Notes under the pieces: model-generated
What the model saw: only the letters and a program-made list of their open reading frames with translations
Told to the model about the DNA's origin: nothing
The model's database searches: none
Translations under genes and position numbers: made by a program
Part shown: positions 16,798-44,926 of the stretch, piece after piece
Numbering within the stretch: the stretch's first letter is position 1
Layout: each line of letters opens with the position of its first letter
Source of the DNA: Eledone cirrhosa
Lineage: Eukaryota
Direction: 5' to 3'
Assembly: GCA_964016885.1 (NCBI GenBank)
Contig: OZ024742.1
Coordinates: 343,418,001-343,482,000 of the forward strand
DNA: 64,000 nt

Positions 16798-16832
<35 letters not shown>

Positions 16833-16833
<1 letters not shown>

Positions 16834-17224
16834 ATGTATATATAATGTATTTTGCAATACACTTTATGCTTAATTAAAAGTATTTTGAAGACCGTAAGCT
16901 ATTGTTTTAAAGTAGTGACAAATTCACTTGCTTTGATCTCAGCAAACAGGGGAGATAAACCGACAAGTCTTGTTTCGCGTTGGTTGAAGCTTATCAAGGC
17001 CAACTACCCCTCCTGTCTACCGAGATCATTGATGTTATATTCTTATAGAAATCTAGTAAATAATCATGAGCTGATTAAGCGAAACAAGACTTGTCGGCTT
17101 ATCTCCCCTGTTTGCTGAGATCAAAGTAAGTGAATTTGTCACTACTTTAAAACAATAGCTTACGGTCTTCAAAATACTTTTAATTAAGCATAAAGTGTAT
17201 TGCAAAATACATTATATATACATC
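16833..17224. repeat. Fold-back inverted repeat, ~145-bp arms, ~100-bp spacer (PLE pLTR-like)
   Basis: About 16833-16978 is the reverse complement of about 17080-17224 with 2-3 mismatches; flanked by (TA)n. Confidence 0.9.
16958..17001 (-). ncRNA. Type-I hammerhead, U3-A8 core variant
   Basis: GGCC-UUGAUAA-GC..GC-GAAA-CAAGACUUG-UC^GGUU. Confidence 0.6.
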
Positions 17225-17260
17225 CATATATATATATATTGCTATTTCAGAGCTCCAATT

Positions 17261-20384: not shown

Positions 20385-20765
20385 ATAAAATATTAAAAAA
20401 AATAATGAATAAAACAATGAAACAGTTCCTTATATTAAACAAAAAAAGTTCATTATTTAACGATCGTTTCTAGGATATATATGTGTTAGAATTGGCATGC
20501 ATATTCAACAGATCTATGTACAAAATTATACAAAATTATACAAACTATCAAAATTAAATATACATACCCAACACATATATATGTATGTGTTGGGTATGTA
20601 TATTTAATTTTGATAGTTTGTATAATTTTGTATAATTTTGTACATAGATCTGTTGAATATGCATGCCAATTCTAACACATATATATCCTAGAAACGATCG
20701 TTAAATAATGAACTTTTTTTGTTTAATATAAGGAACTGTTTCATTGTTTTATTCATTATTTTTTA

Positions 20766-20774
<9 letters not shown>
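20385..20774. repeat. Near-perfect palindrome, ~192-bp arms, 6-bp spacer
   Basis: 20385-20577 is the reverse complement of 20584-20774. Confidence 0.93.
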
Positions 20775-20819
<45 letters not shown>

Positions 20820-21672: not shown

Positions 21673-24400
21673 TAGACTCTACCCTTATACAACTGAAAAA
21701 TTCAAACAAGGTCCATGTCCATTCTGACAAAACTGGTAATCTGTACCATATGGATATCGATAAATATAACCAGTTCATATATAAAGAACTTAGAAAAAAC
21801 TATAAGAAAGCAAATACCACCGCACTGACATCGCTGAATAACATATCATGTGATATAGTAAAAAAGCTCCAGATTGAAGATAGGACTGAGCCTTTCACGC
21901 CTAAAAGCCCGCACTTCAACCTGAAAGACCATAAATCTGACTTTAACTCGAACCCATCTATTAGACTGATATGCCCATAAAAATCTGATATCGGTAATAT
22001 CAGCAAAAAGATTATTGATTGTATCATTCCGCAAATTAGAAAATTTGTAACACTTCCATTATGAGATAACACTTCCTAAGTTATTGAATGGTTCACTAAC
22101 ATTGAGAATAAAAATTCAGCTTCATTCATTCAATTCGACATCGATTCTTACTATTCTTCGATTTCTCCAATTCTTTTAAACAAATCATTCATCTTCGCTA
22201 GAAATAGATCGGATTTATCTACTGAGGAAATCAACATAGGGGAGATAAGCCGACTCACGGTAGAAAAACCTTACTAAACTTCCAATAAAAATATTGGACA
22301 AGAAACACATATATCAACTTATTCGACATTACGATGGGATCGATGGACTCTGCTCAAGTTACAGACCTCGTTGGACTATTTCTCCTCTATAATATTCATT
22401 ACTCTTTTCCCCACCTCAAAGGTGGTCTTTATCGGGATGATTGTCTATTGTTATCTAACAATCTTAGTAATTCCAATATAGAGAAAAACAAAAAACAAAT
22501 TAGAAAATTCCTGAAGGACTATTACAGCCTTAGCATCACTATTGAAAACACTGCAAAAGTAGCTAATTTCCTTGACGTTACCTTAGACCTCTCTACGAAT
22601 ATTTATCAACCTTACCACAAACCCAACCAGAATCTACACTATGTACATTCACGATCTAACCACCCTGGCTCTATACTCAAGAACTTAGTATATAACATAT
22701 CTCTTAGACTTTCTAAATTATCTTCCAATGAAGATATATTTTATAATAATGCACCCTTCTACAACGAGGCCTTATCTAGAAGTGGATATAAAGAAAAAAT
22801 CTCATATATCCCCAACACTACTATGGACCAAAATATAAAACCTAGCAAAAACTACAAACACCAAAAAATATAATTGAAACAAATACCTAAAGAGGTTATT
22901 CCTATTACACCAAACATCCTAAAAACCACAACAACTATTACTACACGATCTATGACCAATGTTATCAACCCACATATGAATACCAAGCACTCAAAATCTC
23001 ATAATCTACTAAAATAACACCAAATACAACCACGGTAATTTACCAAATTCCACAAATACGGATACTAACCATAGAAATTCTTCTAGAACACAACACAATA
23101 ATATAAGTGGTAATAAGAACTTAACTAAAAACCGCAAACGAAACATAACATGGTACAACGCACCCTTCAACCTGCAAACTATTGGACAAATCCCCCCAAA
23201 ATTCTTTGAAATTCTACATAAACATTTTCCACCAAACCACAGATACCACCAAATATTTAACAAATATACTGTTAAATTCTCATACTCTTCATCAAACAAT
23301 CTCCAGCAAAAAATAAGCAACTTCAACATTTATAAACTTAAAGATAATATGACTACACCACTACAACATAATTTAAATAGGACTGCACCTTTTAAAAGGA
23401 CAAATAATACAATCCTTCAACCTGAAAAACACAACCATCCAAATCACCAACACAAAAACAACAGAACACAAACTCACAATACAACCCTAGAACTAAACCA
23501 CCCACAAAGCAACCTTCATTCTCCTGATAACATTAATTACAATAGGAATAACTCAAGGATTAATGAGAATAGTATAGGCACCCCCAACAACCATCTTACG
23601 TATGGTTGTAATTGCAGAAATAGAAGTATTTGCCCATTAAATGGCAACTGTTTGATTAATAATTGTTTCTACTTTAGGCACAAGGCCAGCAATTACCCAG
23701 TACATTACTGGTACTTTATTTTATCGACCCCGTAAGGATGAAAGGCAAAGTTAACCTCGGCAGGATTTGAACTCAGACTGTAAAGGGACGTAACTATGCT
23801 AGAAAGCATGGCGTCCAACCCTCTACCGATACTGCCAATTCACCGACCTTTGATTAATAATGTAATATATAAATGCCAATTCACCAACTGTTTGATTAAT
23901 AAGGTAATATATAAATGCACTGTGTCTACTACTGGCTCCAACAAAACACATATAGGATCTACATCAAACACATTTAAGAAAAGATTTTATGCACACTCTA
24001 GTAGTTTTAACAATACTAAACTAGCTAACACCACATCTTTAGCTGAAGCAGTAAATAATTATAAAAAGAAAAAAATAGATTTCAAACTATCGTGGAACAC
24101 CATTCTACAAAGAACTCCTTATCTTGGGAACAGGAGGGAATGCAGATTATGTTAAGGGGAGATCTTGGAAATTACTAAATCTAAGGACGATTTATTAAAT
24201 AAAAGACAGGAACTGATTATAGTTTGTAATCACCGTATACGAAGAACATTTAAATACTATAAACCTAATTAAATATTCTAAATAGCAACTCACTATAATT
24301 CTATATAGAGTAACATTTGTTAGTACCCCTTTCCCCTAATTATATGCATTCATGCTTATCTTTTACCTTTTAATGTTTTAGCTTCCTTAGGTTTATGCAT
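21668..24400 (+). mobile_element. Degenerate Penelope-like element (Naiad-like): RT + GIY-YIG
   Basis: DKTGNLY, LKDHK, RLICP, FDIDSYY, MGSMDSA..DLVGL, YRDD, FLDVTLDL, SNHP, WYNAPF, CNCR..CPL.GNC, VIYKC..HIG..FKKR and CRLC. Multiple stops; starts at (TA)n. Confidence 0.9.
23664..23848 (-). mobile_element. Second tRNA-derived SINE family inserted in the PLE
   Basis: Minus-strand A-box TGGCAGTATCGG and B-box GAGTTCAAATCC; 13-bp TSD TTTGATTAATAAT at 23651-23663 and 23849-23861. Confidence 0.82.
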
Positions 24401-28700: not shown

Positions 28701-29965
28701 CCCTAAATATATCTCTACTGGAAGACAGTAACACTACATCTATTCCCTAAATATCTCTATACTGGAAGACAGTAACACTACATCTATTCCCTAAATATAT
28801 CTATTTATTGGAAGACAGTAACACTACATCTATTCCCTAAATATATCTCTACTGGAAGACAGTAACACTACATCTATTCCCTAAATATATCTCTCTACTG
28901 GAAGACAGTAACACTACGTCTATTTCCTAAATATATCTCTCTACTGGAAGACAGTAACACTACATCTATTCCCTAAATATCTCTATACTGGAAGACAGTA
29001 ACACTACATCTATTCCCTAAATATATCTATTTATTGGAAGACAGTAACACTACATCTATTCCCTAAATATATCTCTACTGGAAGACAGTAACACTACATC
29101 TATTCCCTAAATATATCTCTCTACTGGAAGACAGTAACACTACATCTATTCCCTAAATATGTCTGTCTACTGGAAGACAGTAACACTACATCTATTCCCT
29201 AAATATATCTCTCTACTGGAAGGCAGTAACATTACATCTATTCCCTAAATATATCACTCTACTGGAAGACAGTAACACTACATCTATTCCCTAAATATAT
29301 CTCTCTACTGGAAGAGAGTAACACTACATCTATTCCCTAAATATATCTCTCTACTGGAAGACAGTAACACTACATCTATTCCCTAAATATCTCTATACTG
29401 GAAGACAGTAACACTACATCTATTCCCTAAATATATCTGTCTACTGGAAGACACTAACACTACATCTATTCCCTAAATATCTCTATACTGGAAGACAGTA
29501 ACGCTACATCTATTCCCTAAATATATCTCTATACTGGAACACAGTAACACTACATCTTTTCCCTTAATATATCTGTCTACTGGAAGACACTAACACTATA
29601 TCTATTCCCTAAATATATCTCTTTACTGGAAGACAGTAACACTACATCTATTCCCTAAATATATCTCTCTACTGGAAGACAGTAACACTACATCTATTCC
29701 CTAAATATATGTAGCGAGAGTACTGGGTTATATGAATGTAACAAGGAATACATTGTTTGTGTGTATAATATTTAATTAACAATGGTAGATAGTATAGTTG
29801 ACATGTCAAAGAAATAGATGATAGAATGAAACAAAGTTAGTCGTTACCGTTTTGATTGCCAGGCAAACGCGGCTGGCAGAGGACGCCTGGCGAAGGCCAG
29901 CCAGGCGCCGGAAGGCCAAATGAGAGGCAGAGCCAAATGAGAGAGTGAGAACTTAAAGTTGTTAG

Positions 29966-29972
29966 TTTTATA
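29966..29972 (-). promoter_or_regulatory. LTR TATA box (TATAAAA), present in all 8 LTRs
   Basis: Minus-strand CCCTATAAAA upstream of ATTAAA/AATAAA (29771-29776), consistent with the PBS/PPT orientation. Confidence 0.55.
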
Positions 29973-30404
29973 GGGTTCTGACCGGAAGTTACAGAAAGGG
30001 TTCTACTTCCCGTCTAGATGTTAATCCAAACAAGGGAGACAACCGCTACATAACCTCCCGCCAGAATTCTAGAATATAAAAATCGAATTGAAATATGTAG
30101 CAAGTTGGCGAGAATGTTGTAACAGGCATGAAAATTACGACAAAAGAATGTTTGCAAAAATCAATGATAGATATCAAGGTAGTAAAGTAAGAGAAGGGCT
30201 CAAAGTTCAAATGTACAAAATATAGTTCACAGGTGTGCAATCACATGACAGCAGGAAAGAAAGTGTGTTCCAGAGAATGAATGCAGGTGGTCTCTGTTCT
30301 GTGGTATATCGTGAAATTTCCAACCTCCGAATGGATTTTCTCACAGAAAGAGTGCTGCAAAAATAAATTCTCTGGCTTTGGTTGTTGGTGAAGCTGTGTT
30401 GATG

Positions 30405-30630
30405 TATTGCTGTTGCTGTTGCTGCTGTATTGCCGTTGCTATTGCTGTCGCTGCTGTATTGCTGTTGCTGCTGCTGCCGCTGCTGTATTGCTGTTGCTGC
30501 TGCTGTTGCTGTTATATTGCTGTTGCTGTTGCCGCTGCTGTTGCTGCTGTATTGCTGTTGCTGCTGTATTGCTGTTGCTGCTGTATTGCTGTTGCTGCTG
30601 TATTGCTGTTGCTGTTGCTGCTGCTGTTGT
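30405..30630. repeat. Degenerate (GCT/GTT)n trinucleotide tract inside the LTR element
   Basis: Source of the poly-Q/poly-C pseudo-ORFs; a shorter version lies at 43583-43753. Confidence 0.9.
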
Positions 30631-31515
30631 CTCGCTGAGTGAGCGTATTCGGTGTTTAAATTCACAGTAAAAAAAAAATTATTTTTAGAAAAAATGAGTT
30701 GCGCAAAGTGCTAGAAATAGCAGCCGAAGTTGATGGTCGATGTTGAGAATGCGTTGACCTGGAAGGGTCAAGAGGCCAGCGACCAAAGAAATAAGCATTC
30801 TGAATAAATGCGCAGTTTTCAACGGCAAATTTACGTAGTAAATTTTTAAACCGGCAAATAGGAGAATATAGCTTAAGGCTGAAGAATCCTTGGCGAGAAA
30901 CGTTATCTCTGGCGTGCGGCTATCTCTGAGAGTCGAGATATCTCTGTGAGTCGAGAATTTGTGCTGCCTACACGTGCCAATACAAGGTTGAAAAAATAAT
31001 ATTTCTAACGCGCGAGAAAATGATAGTGCAATTTTGAAAGTGACAATGATGAAAAAGAAAGGCTTCACTCAGCATAATTATTGGTGTGAACTTTGGGAAA
31101 AAAACTTGAACGATGAAGAAAACGATGAACAAAAAGGCAATGGTTCATCGAAAATAAATGTTCCTGTTGAAATGTTTTTTAAAGAATATCAAATTTCTTT
31201 TTTTTTTTTGTTTTGAAAGAGTTCGTTGTAAGAAACGAGAAACATATATATATATCGTGAAATGTTTTTTATTTTTTTTTGTTTTGAAAGTGTTCGTTGT
31301 AAGAAACGAGAATATATATCGTGAAATGCGACAGTTAGTTGATGCGTGAGAGAAAAAGTTCGTCTGAACGCGAATTCCACATGTGCGTGTGTCCGTTTCT
31401 TTGAGTATTTTCATAGTTTGTCGATAAATTTGCTGTGTATTCGTAATGTTACCCAGACAACTCCAGAATCTGCTATCTTTTTCTTTTTTCGGGGTGACCA
31501 CTTATAGTGATGAAC

Positions 31516-31547
31516 GGCTGCGTGTTCGTATCACGCCAGGGTTACCA
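31516..31547 (+). other. tRNA-Trp 3'-half copy (positions 45-76 incl. CCA) = extended primer-binding site
   Basis: GGCTGCGTGTTCGTATCACGCCAGGGTTACCA matches the recalled metazoan tRNA-Trp GGCTGCGTGTTCGAATCACGTCGGGGTCACCA at 28/32. Confidence 0.8.
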
Positions 31548-34500
31548 ATGTAGCGAGGAGTACTGGGTTATATGAATGTAACAAGGAATACATTGTTTGT
31601 GTGTATAATATTTATTTAACAATGGTAGATAGTATAGTTAACATGTCAAAGAAATAGATGATAGAATGAAACAAAGTTAGTCGTTACCGTTTTAATTGCC
31701 AGGCAAACGCGGCTGGCAGAGGACGCCTGGCTAAGGCCAGCCAGGCACCGGAAGGCCAAGTGAGAGGCAGAACCAAATGAGAGAGTGAGAACTTAAAGTT
31801 GTTAGTTTTATAGGGTTCTGACCGGAAGTTACAGAAAGGGTTCTACTTCCCGTCTAGATGTTAATCCAAACAAGGGAGACAACCGCTACATATATCTCTC
31901 TACTGGAAGACAGTAACACTACATCTATTCCCTAAATATCTCTCTTTATTGGAAAACAGTAACACTACATCTATTCCCTAAATATATCTCTACTGGAAGA
32001 CAGTAACACTACATCAATTCCCTAAATATATCTCTACTGGAAGACAGTAACACTACATCTATTCCCTAAATATATCTCTACTGGAAGACAGTAACACTAC
32101 ATCTATTCCCTAAATATATCTATACTGGAAGACAGTAACACTACATCTATTCCCTAAATATCTCTCTTTATTGGAAGACAGTAACACTACATCTATTCCC
32201 TAAATATATCTCTATACTGGAAGACAGTAGCACTACATCTATTCCCTAAATATATCTCTCTACTGGAAGACAGTAACACTAAATCTATTCCCTAAATATA
32301 TCTCTACTGGAAGACAGTAACACTACATCTATTCCCTAAATATATCTCTCTACTGGAAGACAGTAACACTACATCTATTCCCTAAATATATCTCTCTACT
32401 GGAAGACAGTAACACTACATCTATTCCCTAAATATATCTCTACTGGAAGACAGTAACACTACATCTATTCCCTAAATATATCTCTACTGGAAGACAGTAA
32501 CACTACATCTATTCGCTAAATATATCTCTCTACTGGAAGACAGTAACACTACATCTATTCCCTAAATATATCTCTATACTGGAAGACAGTAACACTACAT
32601 CTATTCCCTAAATATATCTCTACTGGAAGACAGTAACACTACATCTATTCGCTAAATATATCTCTCTACTGGAAGACAGTAAAACTACATCTATTCCCTA
32701 AATATATCTCTCTACTGGAAGACAGTAACACTACATCTATTCCCTAAATATATCTCTCTACTGGAAGACAGCAACACTACATCTATTCCCTAAATATATC
32801 TCTTTACTGGAAGACAGTAACACTACATCTATTCCCTGAATATATCTCTCTATTGGAAGACAGTAACACTACATCTATTCCCTAAATATATCTCTACTGG
32901 AAGACAGTAACACTACATCTATTCCCTAAATATTTCTCTCTATTGGAAGACAGTAACACTACATCTATTCCCTAACTATATCTCTACTGGAAGACAGTAA
33001 CACTACATCTATTCCCTAAATATATCTCTCTACTGGAAGACAGTAACACTACATCTATTCCCTAAATATATCTCTTTATTGGAAGACAGTAACACTACAT
33101 CTATTCCCTAAATATATCTCTCTACTGGAAGACAGTAACACTACATCTATTCCCTAAATATATCTCTCTACTGGAAGACAGTAACACTACATCTATTCCC
33201 TAAATATATCTCTCTATTGGAAGACAGTAACACTACATCTATTCCCTAAATATATCTCTACTGGAAGACAGTAACACTACATCTATTCCCTAAATATTTC
33301 TCTCTATTGGGAGACAGTAACACTACATCTATTCCCTAAATATATCTCTACTGGAAGACAGTAACACTACATCTATTCCCTAAATATATCTCTCTACTGG
33401 AAGACAGTAACACTACATCTATTCCCTAAATATATCTCTCTACTGGAAGACAGTAACACTACATCTATTGCCTAAATATATCTCTCTACTGGAAGACAGT
33501 AACACTACATATATTCCCTAAATATATCTCTTTACTGGAAGACAGTAACACTACATCTATTCCCTAAATATATCTCTCTATTGGAAGACAGTAACACTAC
33601 ATCTATTCCCTAAATATATCTCTACTGGAAGACAGTAACACTACATCTATTCCCTAAATATTTCTCTCTATTGGAAGACAGTAACACTACATCTATTCCC
33701 TAAATATATCTCTACTGGAAGACAGTAACACTACATCTATTCCCTAAATATATCTCTCTACTGGAAGACAGTAACACTACATCTATTCCCTAAATATATC
33801 TCTTTATTGGAAGACAGTAACACTACATCTATTCCCTAAATATTTCTCTCTATTGGAAGACAGTAACACTACATCTATTCCCTAAATATTTCTCGTTATT
33901 GGAAGACAGTAACACTACATCTATTCCCTAAATATATCTCTACTGGAAGACAGTAACACTACATCTATTCCCTAAATATATCTCTCTACTGGAAGACAGT
34001 AACACTAGATCTATTCCCTAAATATATCTCTCTACTGGAAGACAGTAACACTACATCTATTCCCTAAATATATCTCTCTACTGGAAGACAGTAACACTAC
34101 ATCTAAACCCTAACTATATCTCTTTATTGGAAGACAGTAACCCTACATCTATTACCTAAATATATCTCTACTGGAAGACAGTAACACTACATCTATTCCC
34201 TAAATATCTCTCTATACTGGAAGACAGTAACACTACATCCAATCCCCAAATATATCTCTTTATTGGAAGACAGTAACACTACATCTATTCCCTAAATATA
34301 TCTCTTTACTGGACGACAGTAACACTACATCTATTCCCTAAATATATCTCTACTGGAAGATAGTAACACTACATCTATTCCCTAAATATATCTCTACTGG
34401 AAGACAGTAACACTACATCTATTCCCTAAACATATCTCTCTACTGGAAGACAGTAACACTACATCTATTCCCTAAATATATCTCTACTGGAAGACAGTAA

Positions 34501-35298: not shown

Positions 35299-35639
35299 TG
35301 TAGCGAGAGTACTGGGTTATATGAATGTAACAAGGAATACATTGTTTGTGTGTATAATATTTAATTAACAATGGTAGATAGTATAGGTAACATGTCAAAG
35401 ACATAGATGATAGAATGAAACAAAGTTAGTCGTTACCGTTTTGATTGCTAGGCAAACGCGGCTGGCAGAGGACGCCTGGCTAAGGCCAGCCAGGCGCCGG
35501 AAGGCCAAATGTGAGGCAGAGCCAAATGAGAGAGTGAGAACTTAAAGTTGTTAGTTTTATAGGGTTCTGACTGGAAGTTACAGAAAGGGTTCTACTTCTC
35601 GTCTAGATGTCAATCCAAACAAGGGAGACAACCGCTACA
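35299..35639 (-). mobile_element. Solo LTR
   Basis: 341 bp, TG...CA, flanks TATA/TATT. Confidence 0.95.
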
Positions 35640-36728: not shown

Positions 36729-37069
36729 TGTAGCGAGAGTACTGGGTTATATGAATGCAACAAGGAATACATTGTTTGTGTGTATAATATTTAATTAACA
36801 ATGGTAGATAGTATAGGTAACATGTCAAAGAAATAGATGATAGAATGAAACAAAGTTAGTCGTTACCGTTTTGATTGCCAGGCAAACGCGGCTGGCAGAG
36901 GACGCCTGGCTAAGGCCAGCCAGGCACCGGAAGGCCAAATGTGAGGCAGAGCCAAATGAGAGAGTGAGAACTTAAAGTTGTTAGTTTTATAGGGTTCTGA
37001 CTGGAAGTTACAGAAAGGGTTCTACTTCTCGTCTAGATGTCAATCCAAACAAGGGAGACAACCGCTACA
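36729..37069 (-). mobile_element. Solo LTR
   Basis: 341 bp; same flanks as 35299. Confidence 0.95.
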
Positions 37070-38627: not shown

Positions 38628-38968
38628 TGTAGCGAGAGTACTGTGTTATATGAATGTAACAAGGAATACATTGTTTGTGTGTATAATATTTAATTAACAA
38701 TGGTAGATAGTATAGGTAACATGTCAAAGAAATAGATGATAGAATGAAACAAAGTTAGTCGTTACCGTTTTGATTGCCAGGCAAACGCGGCTGGCAGAGA
38801 ACGCCTGGCTAAGGCCAGCCAGGCGCCGGAAGGCCAAATGTGAGGCAGAGCCAAATGAGAGAGTGAGAACTTAAAGTTGTTAGTTTTATAGGGTTCTGAC
38901 TGGAAGTTACAGAAAGGGTTCTACTTCTCGTCTAGATGTCAATCCAAACAAGGGAGACAACCGCTACA
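38628..38968 (-). mobile_element. Solo LTR
   Basis: 341 bp; same flanks as 35299. Confidence 0.95.
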
Positions 38969-41210: not shown

Positions 41211-41551
41211 TGTAGCGAGAGTACTGGGTTATATGAATGTAACAAGGAATACATTGTTTGTGTGTATAATATTTAATTAACAATGGTAGATAGTATAGGT
41301 AACATCTCAAAGAAATAGATGATAGAATGAAACAAAGTTAGTCGTTACCGTTTTGATTGCCAGGCAAACGCGGCTGGCAGAGAACGCCTGGCTAAGGCCA
41401 GCCAGGCGCCGGAAGGCCAAATGTGAGGCAGAGCCAAATGAGAGAGTGAGAACTTAAAGTTGTTAGTTTTATAGGGTTCTGACCGGAAGTTACAGAAAGG
41501 GTTCTACTTCCCGTCTAGATGTTAATCCAAACAAGGGAGACAACCGCTACA
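41211..41551 (-). mobile_element. Solo LTR (mosaic variants)
   Basis: 341 bp; TATA/TATT flanks. Confidence 0.95.
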
Positions 41552-42883: not shown

Positions 42884-44926
42884 TGTAGCGAGAGTACTTA
42901 CAGGGTTATATGAATGTAACAAGGAATACATTGTTTGTGTGTATAATATTTAATTAACAATGGTAGATAGTATAGTTAACATGTCAAAGAAATAGATGAT
43001 AGAATGAAACAAAGTTAGTCGTTACCGTTTTGATTGCCAGGCAAACGCGGCTGGCAGAGGACGCCTGGCTAAGGCCAGCCAGGCGCCGGAAGGCCAAATG
43101 AGAGGCAGAGCCAAATGAGAGAGTGAGAACTTAAAGTTGTTAGTTTTATAGGGTTCTGACTGGAAGTTACAGAAAGGGTTCTACTTCTCGTCTAGATGTC
43201 AATCCAAACAAGGGAGACAACCGCTACATAATCTCCCGCCAGAATTTTAGAATATAAAAATCGAATTGAAATATGTAGCAAGTTGGCGAGAATGTTGTAA
43301 CAGGCATGAAAATTACCACAAAAGAATGTATGCAAAAATCAATGATAGATATCAAGGTCGTAAAGTAAGAGAAGGGCTCAAAGTTCAAATGTACAAAATA
43401 TAGTTCACAGGTATGCAGTCACATGACAGCAGGAAAGAAAGTGTGTTCCAGAGAATGAATGCAGGTGGTCTCTGTTCTGTGGTATATCGTGAAATTTCCA
43501 ACCTCCGAATGTATTTTCTCACAGGAAGAGTGCTGCAAAAATAAATTCTCTGGCTTTGGTTGTTGGTGAAGCTGTGTTGATGTATTGCTGTTGCTGTTGC
43601 TGCTGTATTGCCGTTGCTGTTGCTGTCGCTGCTGTATTGCTGTTGCTGCTGCTGCTGCCGCCGCCGCTGCTGTATTGCTGTTGCTGTTATATTGCTGTTG
43701 CTGTTGCCGCTGCTGTTGATGCTGTATTGCTGTTGCTGTTGCTGCTGCTGTTGTCTCGCTGAGTGAGCGTATTCGGTGTTTAAATTCACAGTAAAAAAAT
43801 AATTTTTTTTTAGAAAAAATGAGTTGCGCAAAGTGCTAGAAATAGCAGCCGAAGTTGATGGTCGATGTTGAGAATGCGTTGACCTGGAAGGGTCAAGAGG
43901 CCAGCGACCAAAGAAATAAGCATTCTGAATAAATGCGCAGTTTTCAACGGCAAATTTACGTAGTAAATTTTTAAACCGGCAAATAGGAGAATATAGCTTA
44001 AGGCTGAAGAATCCTTGGCGAAAAACGTTATCTCTGGCGTGCGGCTATCTCTGTGAGTCGAGAATTTGTGCTGCCTACACGTGCCAATACAAGGTTGAAA
44101 AAATAATATTTCTAACGCGCGAGAAAATGATAGTGCAATTTTGAAAGTGACAATGATGAAAAAGAAAGGCTTCACTCAGCATAATTATTGGTGTGAACTT
44201 TGGAAAAAAAACTTGAACGATGAAGAAAACGATGAACAAAAACGCAATGGTTCATCGAAAATAAATGTTCCTGTTGAAATGTTTTTTAAAGAATATCAAA
44301 TTTCTTTTTTTTTTTTTTTTTGAAAGAGTTCGTTGTAAGAAACAAGAATATATATTGTGAAATGCGACAGTTAGTTGATGCGTGAGAGAAAAAGTCCGTC
44401 TGAACGCGAATTCCACATGTGCGTGTGTCCGTTTCTTTGAGTATTTTCATAGTTTGTCGATAAATTTGCTGTGTATTCGTAATGTTACTCACACAAAACC
44501 AGAATCTGCTATCTTTTTCTTTTTTCGGGGTGACCACTTATAGTGATGAACGGCTGCGTGTTCGTATCACGTCAGAGTTACCAATGTAGCGAGGAGTACT
44601 GGGTTATATGAATGTAACAAGGAATACATTGTTTGTGTGTATAATATTTAATTAACAATGGTAGATAGTATAGTTAACATGTCAAAGAAATAGATGATAG
44701 AATGAAACAAAGTTAGTCGTTACCGTTTTGATTGCCAGGCAAACGCGGCTGGCAGAGGACGCCTGGCTAAGGCCAGCCAGGCACCGGAAGGCCAAGTGAG
44801 AGGCAGAACCAAATGAGAGAGTGAGAACTTAAAGTTGTTAGTTTTATAGGGTTCTGACCGGAAGTTACAGAAAGGGTTCTACTTCCCGTCTAGATGTTAA
44901 TCCAAACAAGGGAGACAACCGCTACA
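42884..44926 (-). mobile_element. Non-autonomous LTR retrotransposon, copy B (LTRs 42884-43228 and 44585-44926)
   Basis: Same architecture as copy A, with TSD TATA, tRNA-Trp segment at 44552-44583 and a 1356-bp internal region (1498 bp in A). Confidence 0.93.

Follow-up and report, generated by a model that had tools for sequence, protein, structure and literature searches.

A non-coding LTR retrotransposon of Eledone cirrhosa with a 32-nt tRNA-Trp primer site changed at position 58: probable read-through of a modified primer

RESULTS

A non-coding LTR retrotransposon housed in a satellite array

The window, that is, the whole stretch of 64,000 nucleotides that was analyzed, contains a minus-strand, non-coding LTR retrotransposon of about 2.1 kb, with 342-bp LTRs, an interior of 1.4 to 1.5 kb, a polypurine tract, and a TATA target duplication. 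It is present in two full copies of 2,181 bp (copy 1) and 2,043 bp (copy 2), together with four solo LTRs. The features are as follows.

25763-63998, no strand: 46-bp satellite array that houses and amplified the insertion
29706-29709 and 31891-31894: 4-bp target duplication TATA, copy 1
29710-30050, minus strand: 3' LTR, copy 1
30051-30064, minus strand: polypurine tract adjoining the 3' LTR, copy 1, visible directly in the sequence
30065-31488, minus strand: non-coding interior, copy 1, with a CAG-rich simple repeat and without gag/pol similarity
31489-31500, minus strand: inner, ancestral 12-nt primer-binding site (PBS), copy 1, 11/12 (12/12 in basal copies and single-site relatives)
31501-31515, minus strand: linker between the sites, copy 1, from a side-by-side comparison of L247, L094, L277, and the window; made up of a 2-nt spacer (31501-31502), a duplicated 8-nt LTR U5 end (31503-31510), and 5 unexplained nt (31511-31515)
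31516-31547, minus strand: outer, extended PBS, copy 1, complement of tRNA-Trp positions 45-76 including CCA, 28/32 against host gene L055
31529, plus strand: T at tRNA position 58, copy 1 (A on the element strand), family-wide
31548: 1-nt spacer between the outer site and the LTR end (31549), copy 1
31549-31890, minus strand: 5' LTR, copy 1, 342 bp, TG...CA inverted ends
35299-35639, 36729-37069, 38628-38968, and 41211-41551, minus strand: four solo LTRs in the same satellite phase
42884-44926, minus strand: copy 2, a duplicate of the same insertion
44525-44536, 44565, and 44552-44583: inner site, T58, and outer site of copy 2

The paired LTRs with inverted ends, PBS, polypurine tract, and target duplication that mark a non-autonomous LTR retrotransposon are all present. 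The single long internal frame that was scanned for gag/pol capacity gave no Pfam match, a six-frame tblastn comparison of the element with 12 loci of coding relatives gave no match, and ARAGORN called no tRNA in the 64,000-nt window.

All eight LTRs in the window (8/8) lie at one phase of the 46-bp satellite and carry the same TATA duplication. The 5' LTRs are 99.4% identical to one another, whereas each is only 96.8 to 97.7% identical to its own 3' LTR. Given the shared satellite phase, the two full copies and four solo LTRs are one insertion that was amplified along with the array, and the use of the window copies as independent support was rejected on the same evidence of phase, TATA, and LTR identity.

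Elsewhere in the window, positions 1-21700 contain numerous long inverted repeats as well as perfect palindromes, for example at 20385-20776 and 16818-17239. The broken frames at 22289-24155, without a Pfam match at an E value of 0.05, resemble by eye what we take to be a Penelope-type reverse transcriptase (RT) with a GIY-YIG endonuclease.

Match of the primer sites to the host tRNA-Trp

The host tRNA-Trp gene at locus L055, with CCA added, was used as the reference for site matching. Both outer segments match its positions 45-76, CCA included, at 28/32, for which the chance expectation in the window is about 2e-7. The original prediction of a CCA-ended 32-nt segment with this identity in both copies, lying one base from the LTR, applies equally to the host's own gene, and 31548 is the sole base before the LTR end. 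The differences are A58T (31529), T65C, G67A, and C72T in copy 1 and A58T (44565), G67A, G69A, and C72T in copy 2. Per copy, three of the four mismatches fall within the span of an ordinary 18-nt site and have nothing to do with position 58. The predicted T at position 58 was confirmed against the host gene, which has A58. The inner motifs, separated from the outer site by 15 bp, match at 11/12 each with the difference C72G, as had been described.

Across the 3.0-Gb genome, host tRNA-Trp genes carry A58, with variation at positions 47, 57, and 67. Among 56 gene copies, which lack CCA by the design of the search, one has T58 (1/56), and it differs from the element in having A57 rather than G57, so that the original interpretation survives this check. 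The best-fitting source is the host's own tRNA-Trp plus CCA, which the genes lack. The search of host tRNA-Trp gene copies turned up no Trp-derived SINE, and no host isodecoder equal to the commonest outer site (A67 plus T72) was found among the host genes. As a separate observation, one tandem tRNA-Trp array (G000:C4:353413703 and seven more copies) carries tRNA-Trp-bodied copies with anticodon CAA rather than CCA, and a cluster at 277.4 Mb of C4 holds single tRNA-Trp-bodied copies with other anticodons.

One founding event in the element family

The family comprises hundreds of genomic copies; the commonest site type (A67/T72) by itself accounts for 374 exact matches. Some copies have identical LTR pairs (L175, 100% over 369 bp), and the family has therefore moved recently. 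T58 was found in 30/30 family loci examined and in 98 of the first 100 rows among the 374 commonest-type matches. Genome-wide, six exact matches carry a base other than T at this position, all of them C and none A or G; these are near the background of 1 to 2 per 100 at neighboring positions and are not counted as signal. Recurrent read-through restoring A58 within the family was considered and rejected, with 0 such copies genome-wide. T58 is thus inherited family-wide from one event (n = 1), and the family alone cannot test the modification idea. What had been presented as two copies with T58 holds as an observation, but not as two independent cases.

A search for the inner motif joined to the LTR end gave five loci in which an exact 12-nt site abuts the LTR. 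None of these single-site relatives has the younger G72 form, and they are therefore unlike deletions from young copies. In a midpoint-rooted tree of 650 nt of the interior (32 rows, primer region excluded), they lie basal to a single group that unites the 27 extended-site rows (support, 91/96). These relatives back the predicted placement of a new, extended PBS ahead of an old one. Between single-site L247 and the basal extended copy L094 there is a clean 47-nt insert, made up of a spacer, tRNA positions 76-45, five unexplained nucleotides, and 8 nt repeated from the LTR end. The basal copies L094 and L277 equal the tRNA at all positions from 45 to 76 except 58. LTR-pair identities (99.4% for L246, 96.6% for L247, and 98.8% for L094, from partial LTRs) give no sign of the single-site copies being older.

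In 54 family loci, the inner site is 12/12 in 5, 11/12 in 22, further changed in 24, and without CCA in 3. The second PBS of the original prediction is real as an older inner site, but a maintained second PBS was rejected on this decay, with only five loci keeping 12/12; it is a decaying relic. The outer site occurs as A67/T72 (374 copies) and G67/T72 (6 copies), and among the first 100 of 168 rows, counted by hand, there were 32 A67/C72 and 44 G67/C72. Since insertion, the outer site has regained part of the tRNA sequence by repair from its 3' end, and the inner site has gone on decaying.

In L130, the 3' LTR bears a copy of the primer site and ends at the duplicated U5 fragment, with the CTCA target duplication directly after that fragment; such fragments can therefore act as integration ends. 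L130 (G000:C1:315.54 Mb), L093, and L107 have three primer sites each. At the LTR ends of the family (e.g., L003-L030), the first 12 to 15 U5 bases beside the primer site differ greatly from copy to copy, and the inner U5 fragment tends to track the LTR's own variant across lineages; readings of the 3' LTR end were taken from L028 and L175 only. A family copy with identical LTRs (L175:3128-5248) adjoins or lies inside a family-D coding element. Copies with T47 are scattered on the family tree, but as a signal they are confounded with older lineages and were set aside.

Excess of changes at position 58 in other tRNA-Trp copies

A pattern search that left positions 50-60 free gave 35 CCA-ended tRNA-Trp copies reaching position 44. 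Their flanks differ: some are primer sites of coding elements, and others resemble one-off fragments that were captured or folded back, of a type known from break repair in yeast (excerpt of PMC11372161). Four rows were dropped, namely one palindrome arm and three family-D copies in which rewriting reached only 59, leaving 31. Position 58 was changed in 9/31 copies (T in five, C in two, and G in two), compared with 7 changes in 279 neighboring cells (2, 1, 1, 2, 0, 0, 0, 0, and 1 at positions 50-56, 59, and 60). The excess over neighboring positions, one of the checks set for the original prediction, was thus found (Fisher p = 2e-6), as was an excess over the 1/56 host genes (p = 3e-4). With no rows dropped and one row per upstream junction, 8/28 were changed at 58 (binomial p = 2e-4). 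Because the changed copies cluster in a few LTR types, the 31 copies are incompletely independent.

A58 is retained in 22/31 read-through copies. Change at 58 is uneven with respect to the neighboring base, with 7/11 in A57 copies versus 2/20 in G57 copies (p = 0.003); the window element has G57. The per-site rate at position 58 is therefore between 10% (G57 class) and 29%, against a background of 2.5%. One-off captured fragments are also changed at 58 (L143, L154, L052, and L165). G37 was changed in 2/6 copies spanning position 37 versus 1/73 gene copies (p = 0.014; small sample); this base of tRNA-Trp is presumably m1G37.

The same signature with other tRNAs at TGT-type LTR ends was at chance level (6 matches versus 3 in a reversed control), and an Rfam tRNA search for a second primer, with 63 candidates scored, gave only Thr genes and an A58 tRNA-like repeat. 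L252-L262 belong to a dispersed tRNA-like repeat with a variable anticodon, probably a SINE head, whose score exceeds the Rfam cut-off for tRNA. L051, L179, and L183 are palindromic or folded-back insertions of the tRNA-Trp 3' half plus an LTR end, probably captured abortive cDNA.

Repeated rewriting of primer tracts in coding families

Coding elements with tRNA-Trp sites and a CHCC Gag motif occur in the genome as families B and D. The coding relatives have the motif as CX2HX9CX3C and the order PR-RT-RH-IN. The window element, with no ORF, does not carry the motif and shares only the primer tract with families B and D, and no autonomous partner sharing its LTR or interior was found among the 12 loci compared. 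The 32-nt tract of family B retains A58 in the roughly 20 copies examined.

In families D and E (best 30 matches each), most copies hold an old, decayed tRNA tract. Among those matches, query copies aside, D has one read-through copy and two copies rewritten to 59, and E has two rewritten to 59; L162, L164, and L173 were added from the set of 35 CCA-ended copies. Fresh tRNA copies end exactly at 59 in L232, L237, L164, L193, and L197, and run past 58 in L215 (A58), L218 (A58), L162 (T58), L185 (G58), and L173 (T58). On the trees, the fresh copies are interspersed among decayed ones. A single clade of the three D read-through copies was rejected (AU p = 0.009); the pairs L215 plus L218 and L185 plus L173 were not rejected as clades (AU p = 0.054 and 0.059). 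The primer tracts of D and E have been rewritten repeatedly, to position 59 exactly or beyond 58. Read by eye, the decayed tracts, which are changed elsewhere too, have T at the equivalent of position 58.

DISCUSSION

Primer read-through as the origin of the outer site

As is well known, m1A58 of the primer is the textbook stop of plus-strand synthesis, and products that overrun it by far are described as dead ends. Here, we propose that an RT overran its tRNA-Trp primer during plus-strand synthesis, likely misreading m1A58 in passing, on the assumption that position 58 is methylated in this host. The overextended plus strand would have rejoined its template some 8 nt inside U5, and a second copy of the U5 end, spacer, and old site would then have been made. 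The 32-nt tRNA copy and the duplicated LTR end would thereby have been placed ahead of the older 12-nt site, after which the outer site may have become the working site and the inner one decayed. The enzymes were presumably supplied in trans by a coding CsRn1-type element.

We hold with high confidence that the insert arose by primer read-through, and it is quite likely that T58 is due to the modification; read-through copying of mature tRNA-Trp with probable misreading of m1A58 is, taken as one, a likely explanation of both the outer site and T58. The claim that read-through of m1A58 fixed T58 is in this sense supported, with the methyl group deduced for this host and with read-through leaving A58 in most of the copies. 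The window copy is one fossil, and it is the genome-wide set that makes the modification reading credible.

An alternative that we consider unlikely is that read-through took place on an unmethylated, or correctly read, tRNA and that T58 is an ordinary point mutation of the founder. The family does trace to a single founder, and A58 is kept in most read-through copies, G57 copies especially (18/20). On the other hand, position 58 is the sole difference from the tRNA across 45-76 in the basal copies L094 and L277, and the decayed D and E tracts, for all their other changes, also appear by eye to have T there. Because the rate is 10 to 29% at position 58 versus 2.5% in the background, a modification-caused T58 is favored about fourfold or better.

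Still less probable is that the extension was selected for long primer pairing and that T58 reflects relaxed selection, as m1A cannot pair, rather than a copying error. The duplex is stronger in silico for 32 nt (-57 kcal/mol) than for 18 nt (-28 kcal/mol), and lentiviruses keep a short primer overextension sequence beside the PBS (excerpt of PMC13191261). However, the tracts decay in families D and E, the captured one-off fragments are changed at 58 although they are beyond selection, and the single-site relatives transposed without any extension. Capture of the tract, through recombination at the DNA level or a template switch, from a genomic tRNA gene or a repeat of tRNA origin that already had T58 is very improbable and, within the assembled tRNA arrays, largely refuted: one T58 gene copy does exist in a tRNA array, but it has A57 and lacks CCA, G57-T58 occurs in 0/56 gene copies, no gene has A67 plus T72, and the tract and the PBS are in register, as expected of a primer copy.

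Comparison with known systems

For read-through and misreading of m1A58, one parallel is the m1A signature in vitro, which consists of arrest after the +1 base and misreading as T, G, or C; the base is sometimes read correctly (excerpt of PMC4787781). The stop at 59 and misreading at 58 observed here are this two-part signature, and all three wrong bases occur at position 58. In vitro, C is low when m1A is followed by A, and there is no effect of the -1 base (same excerpt), whereas C makes up 2/9 of the changes here and change is associated with A57; the enzyme and the setting differ.

In HIV-1, RT mostly stops at 59 but sometimes runs on, with minor stops beyond m1A58, and transfer and integration are ascribed only to products that end by position 54-55 (excerpts of PMC13191261 and PMC8599865). 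In contrast, copies that extend to 45, 37, and about 28 have become fixed here in a germline genome, with mismatches at 58. Shared with lentiviral overextension, as excerpted, is that the genome beside the PBS can match the overrun. The D and E tracts could plausibly work like the lentiviral overextension sequence, with fresh read-through copies landing on old tracts; unlike that sequence, they are not conserved but decay.

Older work on avian retroviruses reportedly found plus-strand products past m1A58 of tRNA-Trp. In the literature searched, mostly non-subscription papers, there was no report of inherited overextended primer copies with changes at position 58, and the excerpts of PMC5322556 and PMC12471100 contain nothing on overextended primer copies.

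Elements of the CsRn1 clade of Ty3/Gypsy (CsRn1, PwRn1, and AgCR) have a tRNA-Trp site of about 12 nt, a 4-bp target duplication, and LTR ends of ACA, ATA, or AAA (excerpt of PMC2582038). The window element shares the tRNA-Trp PBS, the 4-bp duplication (TATA in the window, TGCT in L175, and CTCA in L130), and the TGT...ACA/ATA/AAA ends, with all three end types among family copies, but it has no coding region. By these cis features, it would fit a non-autonomous LTR element that works as a CsRn1 dependent. The text of PMC2582038, as excerpted and apart from its alignment figure, describes no 32- to 50-nt site, duplicated site, or position-58 change.

TRIMs are shorter than 1,000 bp, and Helenus (TRIMp3) has a tRNA-like promoter inside its LTR (excerpt of PMC10886601). 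The window element resembles these in being non-coding, with a PBS, a polypurine tract, and, as in animals, a 4-bp duplication. However, it is longer than TRIMs, at 2.0 to 2.2 kb, and its tRNA copy is a PBS outside the LTR rather than a promoter as in Helenus, consistent with the ARAGORN result.

In mouse ETn/MusD/IAP, mismatched PBSs show reversion, and misincorporation at tRNA modifications was considered but the positions did not match (excerpt of PMC7472051). Likewise, the commonest site here has two tRNA mismatches and a minority revert; in contrast, the changed positions here do match modification sites. In Ty1 and Ty3, the primer sequence is not inherited (excerpt of PMC5371799); this would account for the persistence of mismatched sites here.

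Implications

In the natural insertions described here, overrun products were integrated into the genome, passed on, and multiplied to hundreds of copies. These insertions provide a genome-only, in vivo readout of how retrotransposon RT behaves at modified bases, and the position-58 test can be cheaply repeated in any assembled genome. They also document a path of primer-site change, from a single 12-nt site through a 47-nt insert to decay of the old site; the mechanism of such change is called unknown in the excerpt of PMC10886601.

A broader reading, to which we give an even chance, is that tRNA-Trp-primed CsRn1-type elements have repeatedly read through modified primer bases in the germline and integrated the products. 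The assembly would then be a dated in vivo map of tRNA-Trp modification, containing stops at 59, misreads at m1A58 and position 37, and isodecoder differences (A57 versus G57). If this is true, primer tracts in repeat libraries could be readable as fossil tRNA-seq, and overextension would be one way for LTR elements to rebuild or exchange their primer sites.
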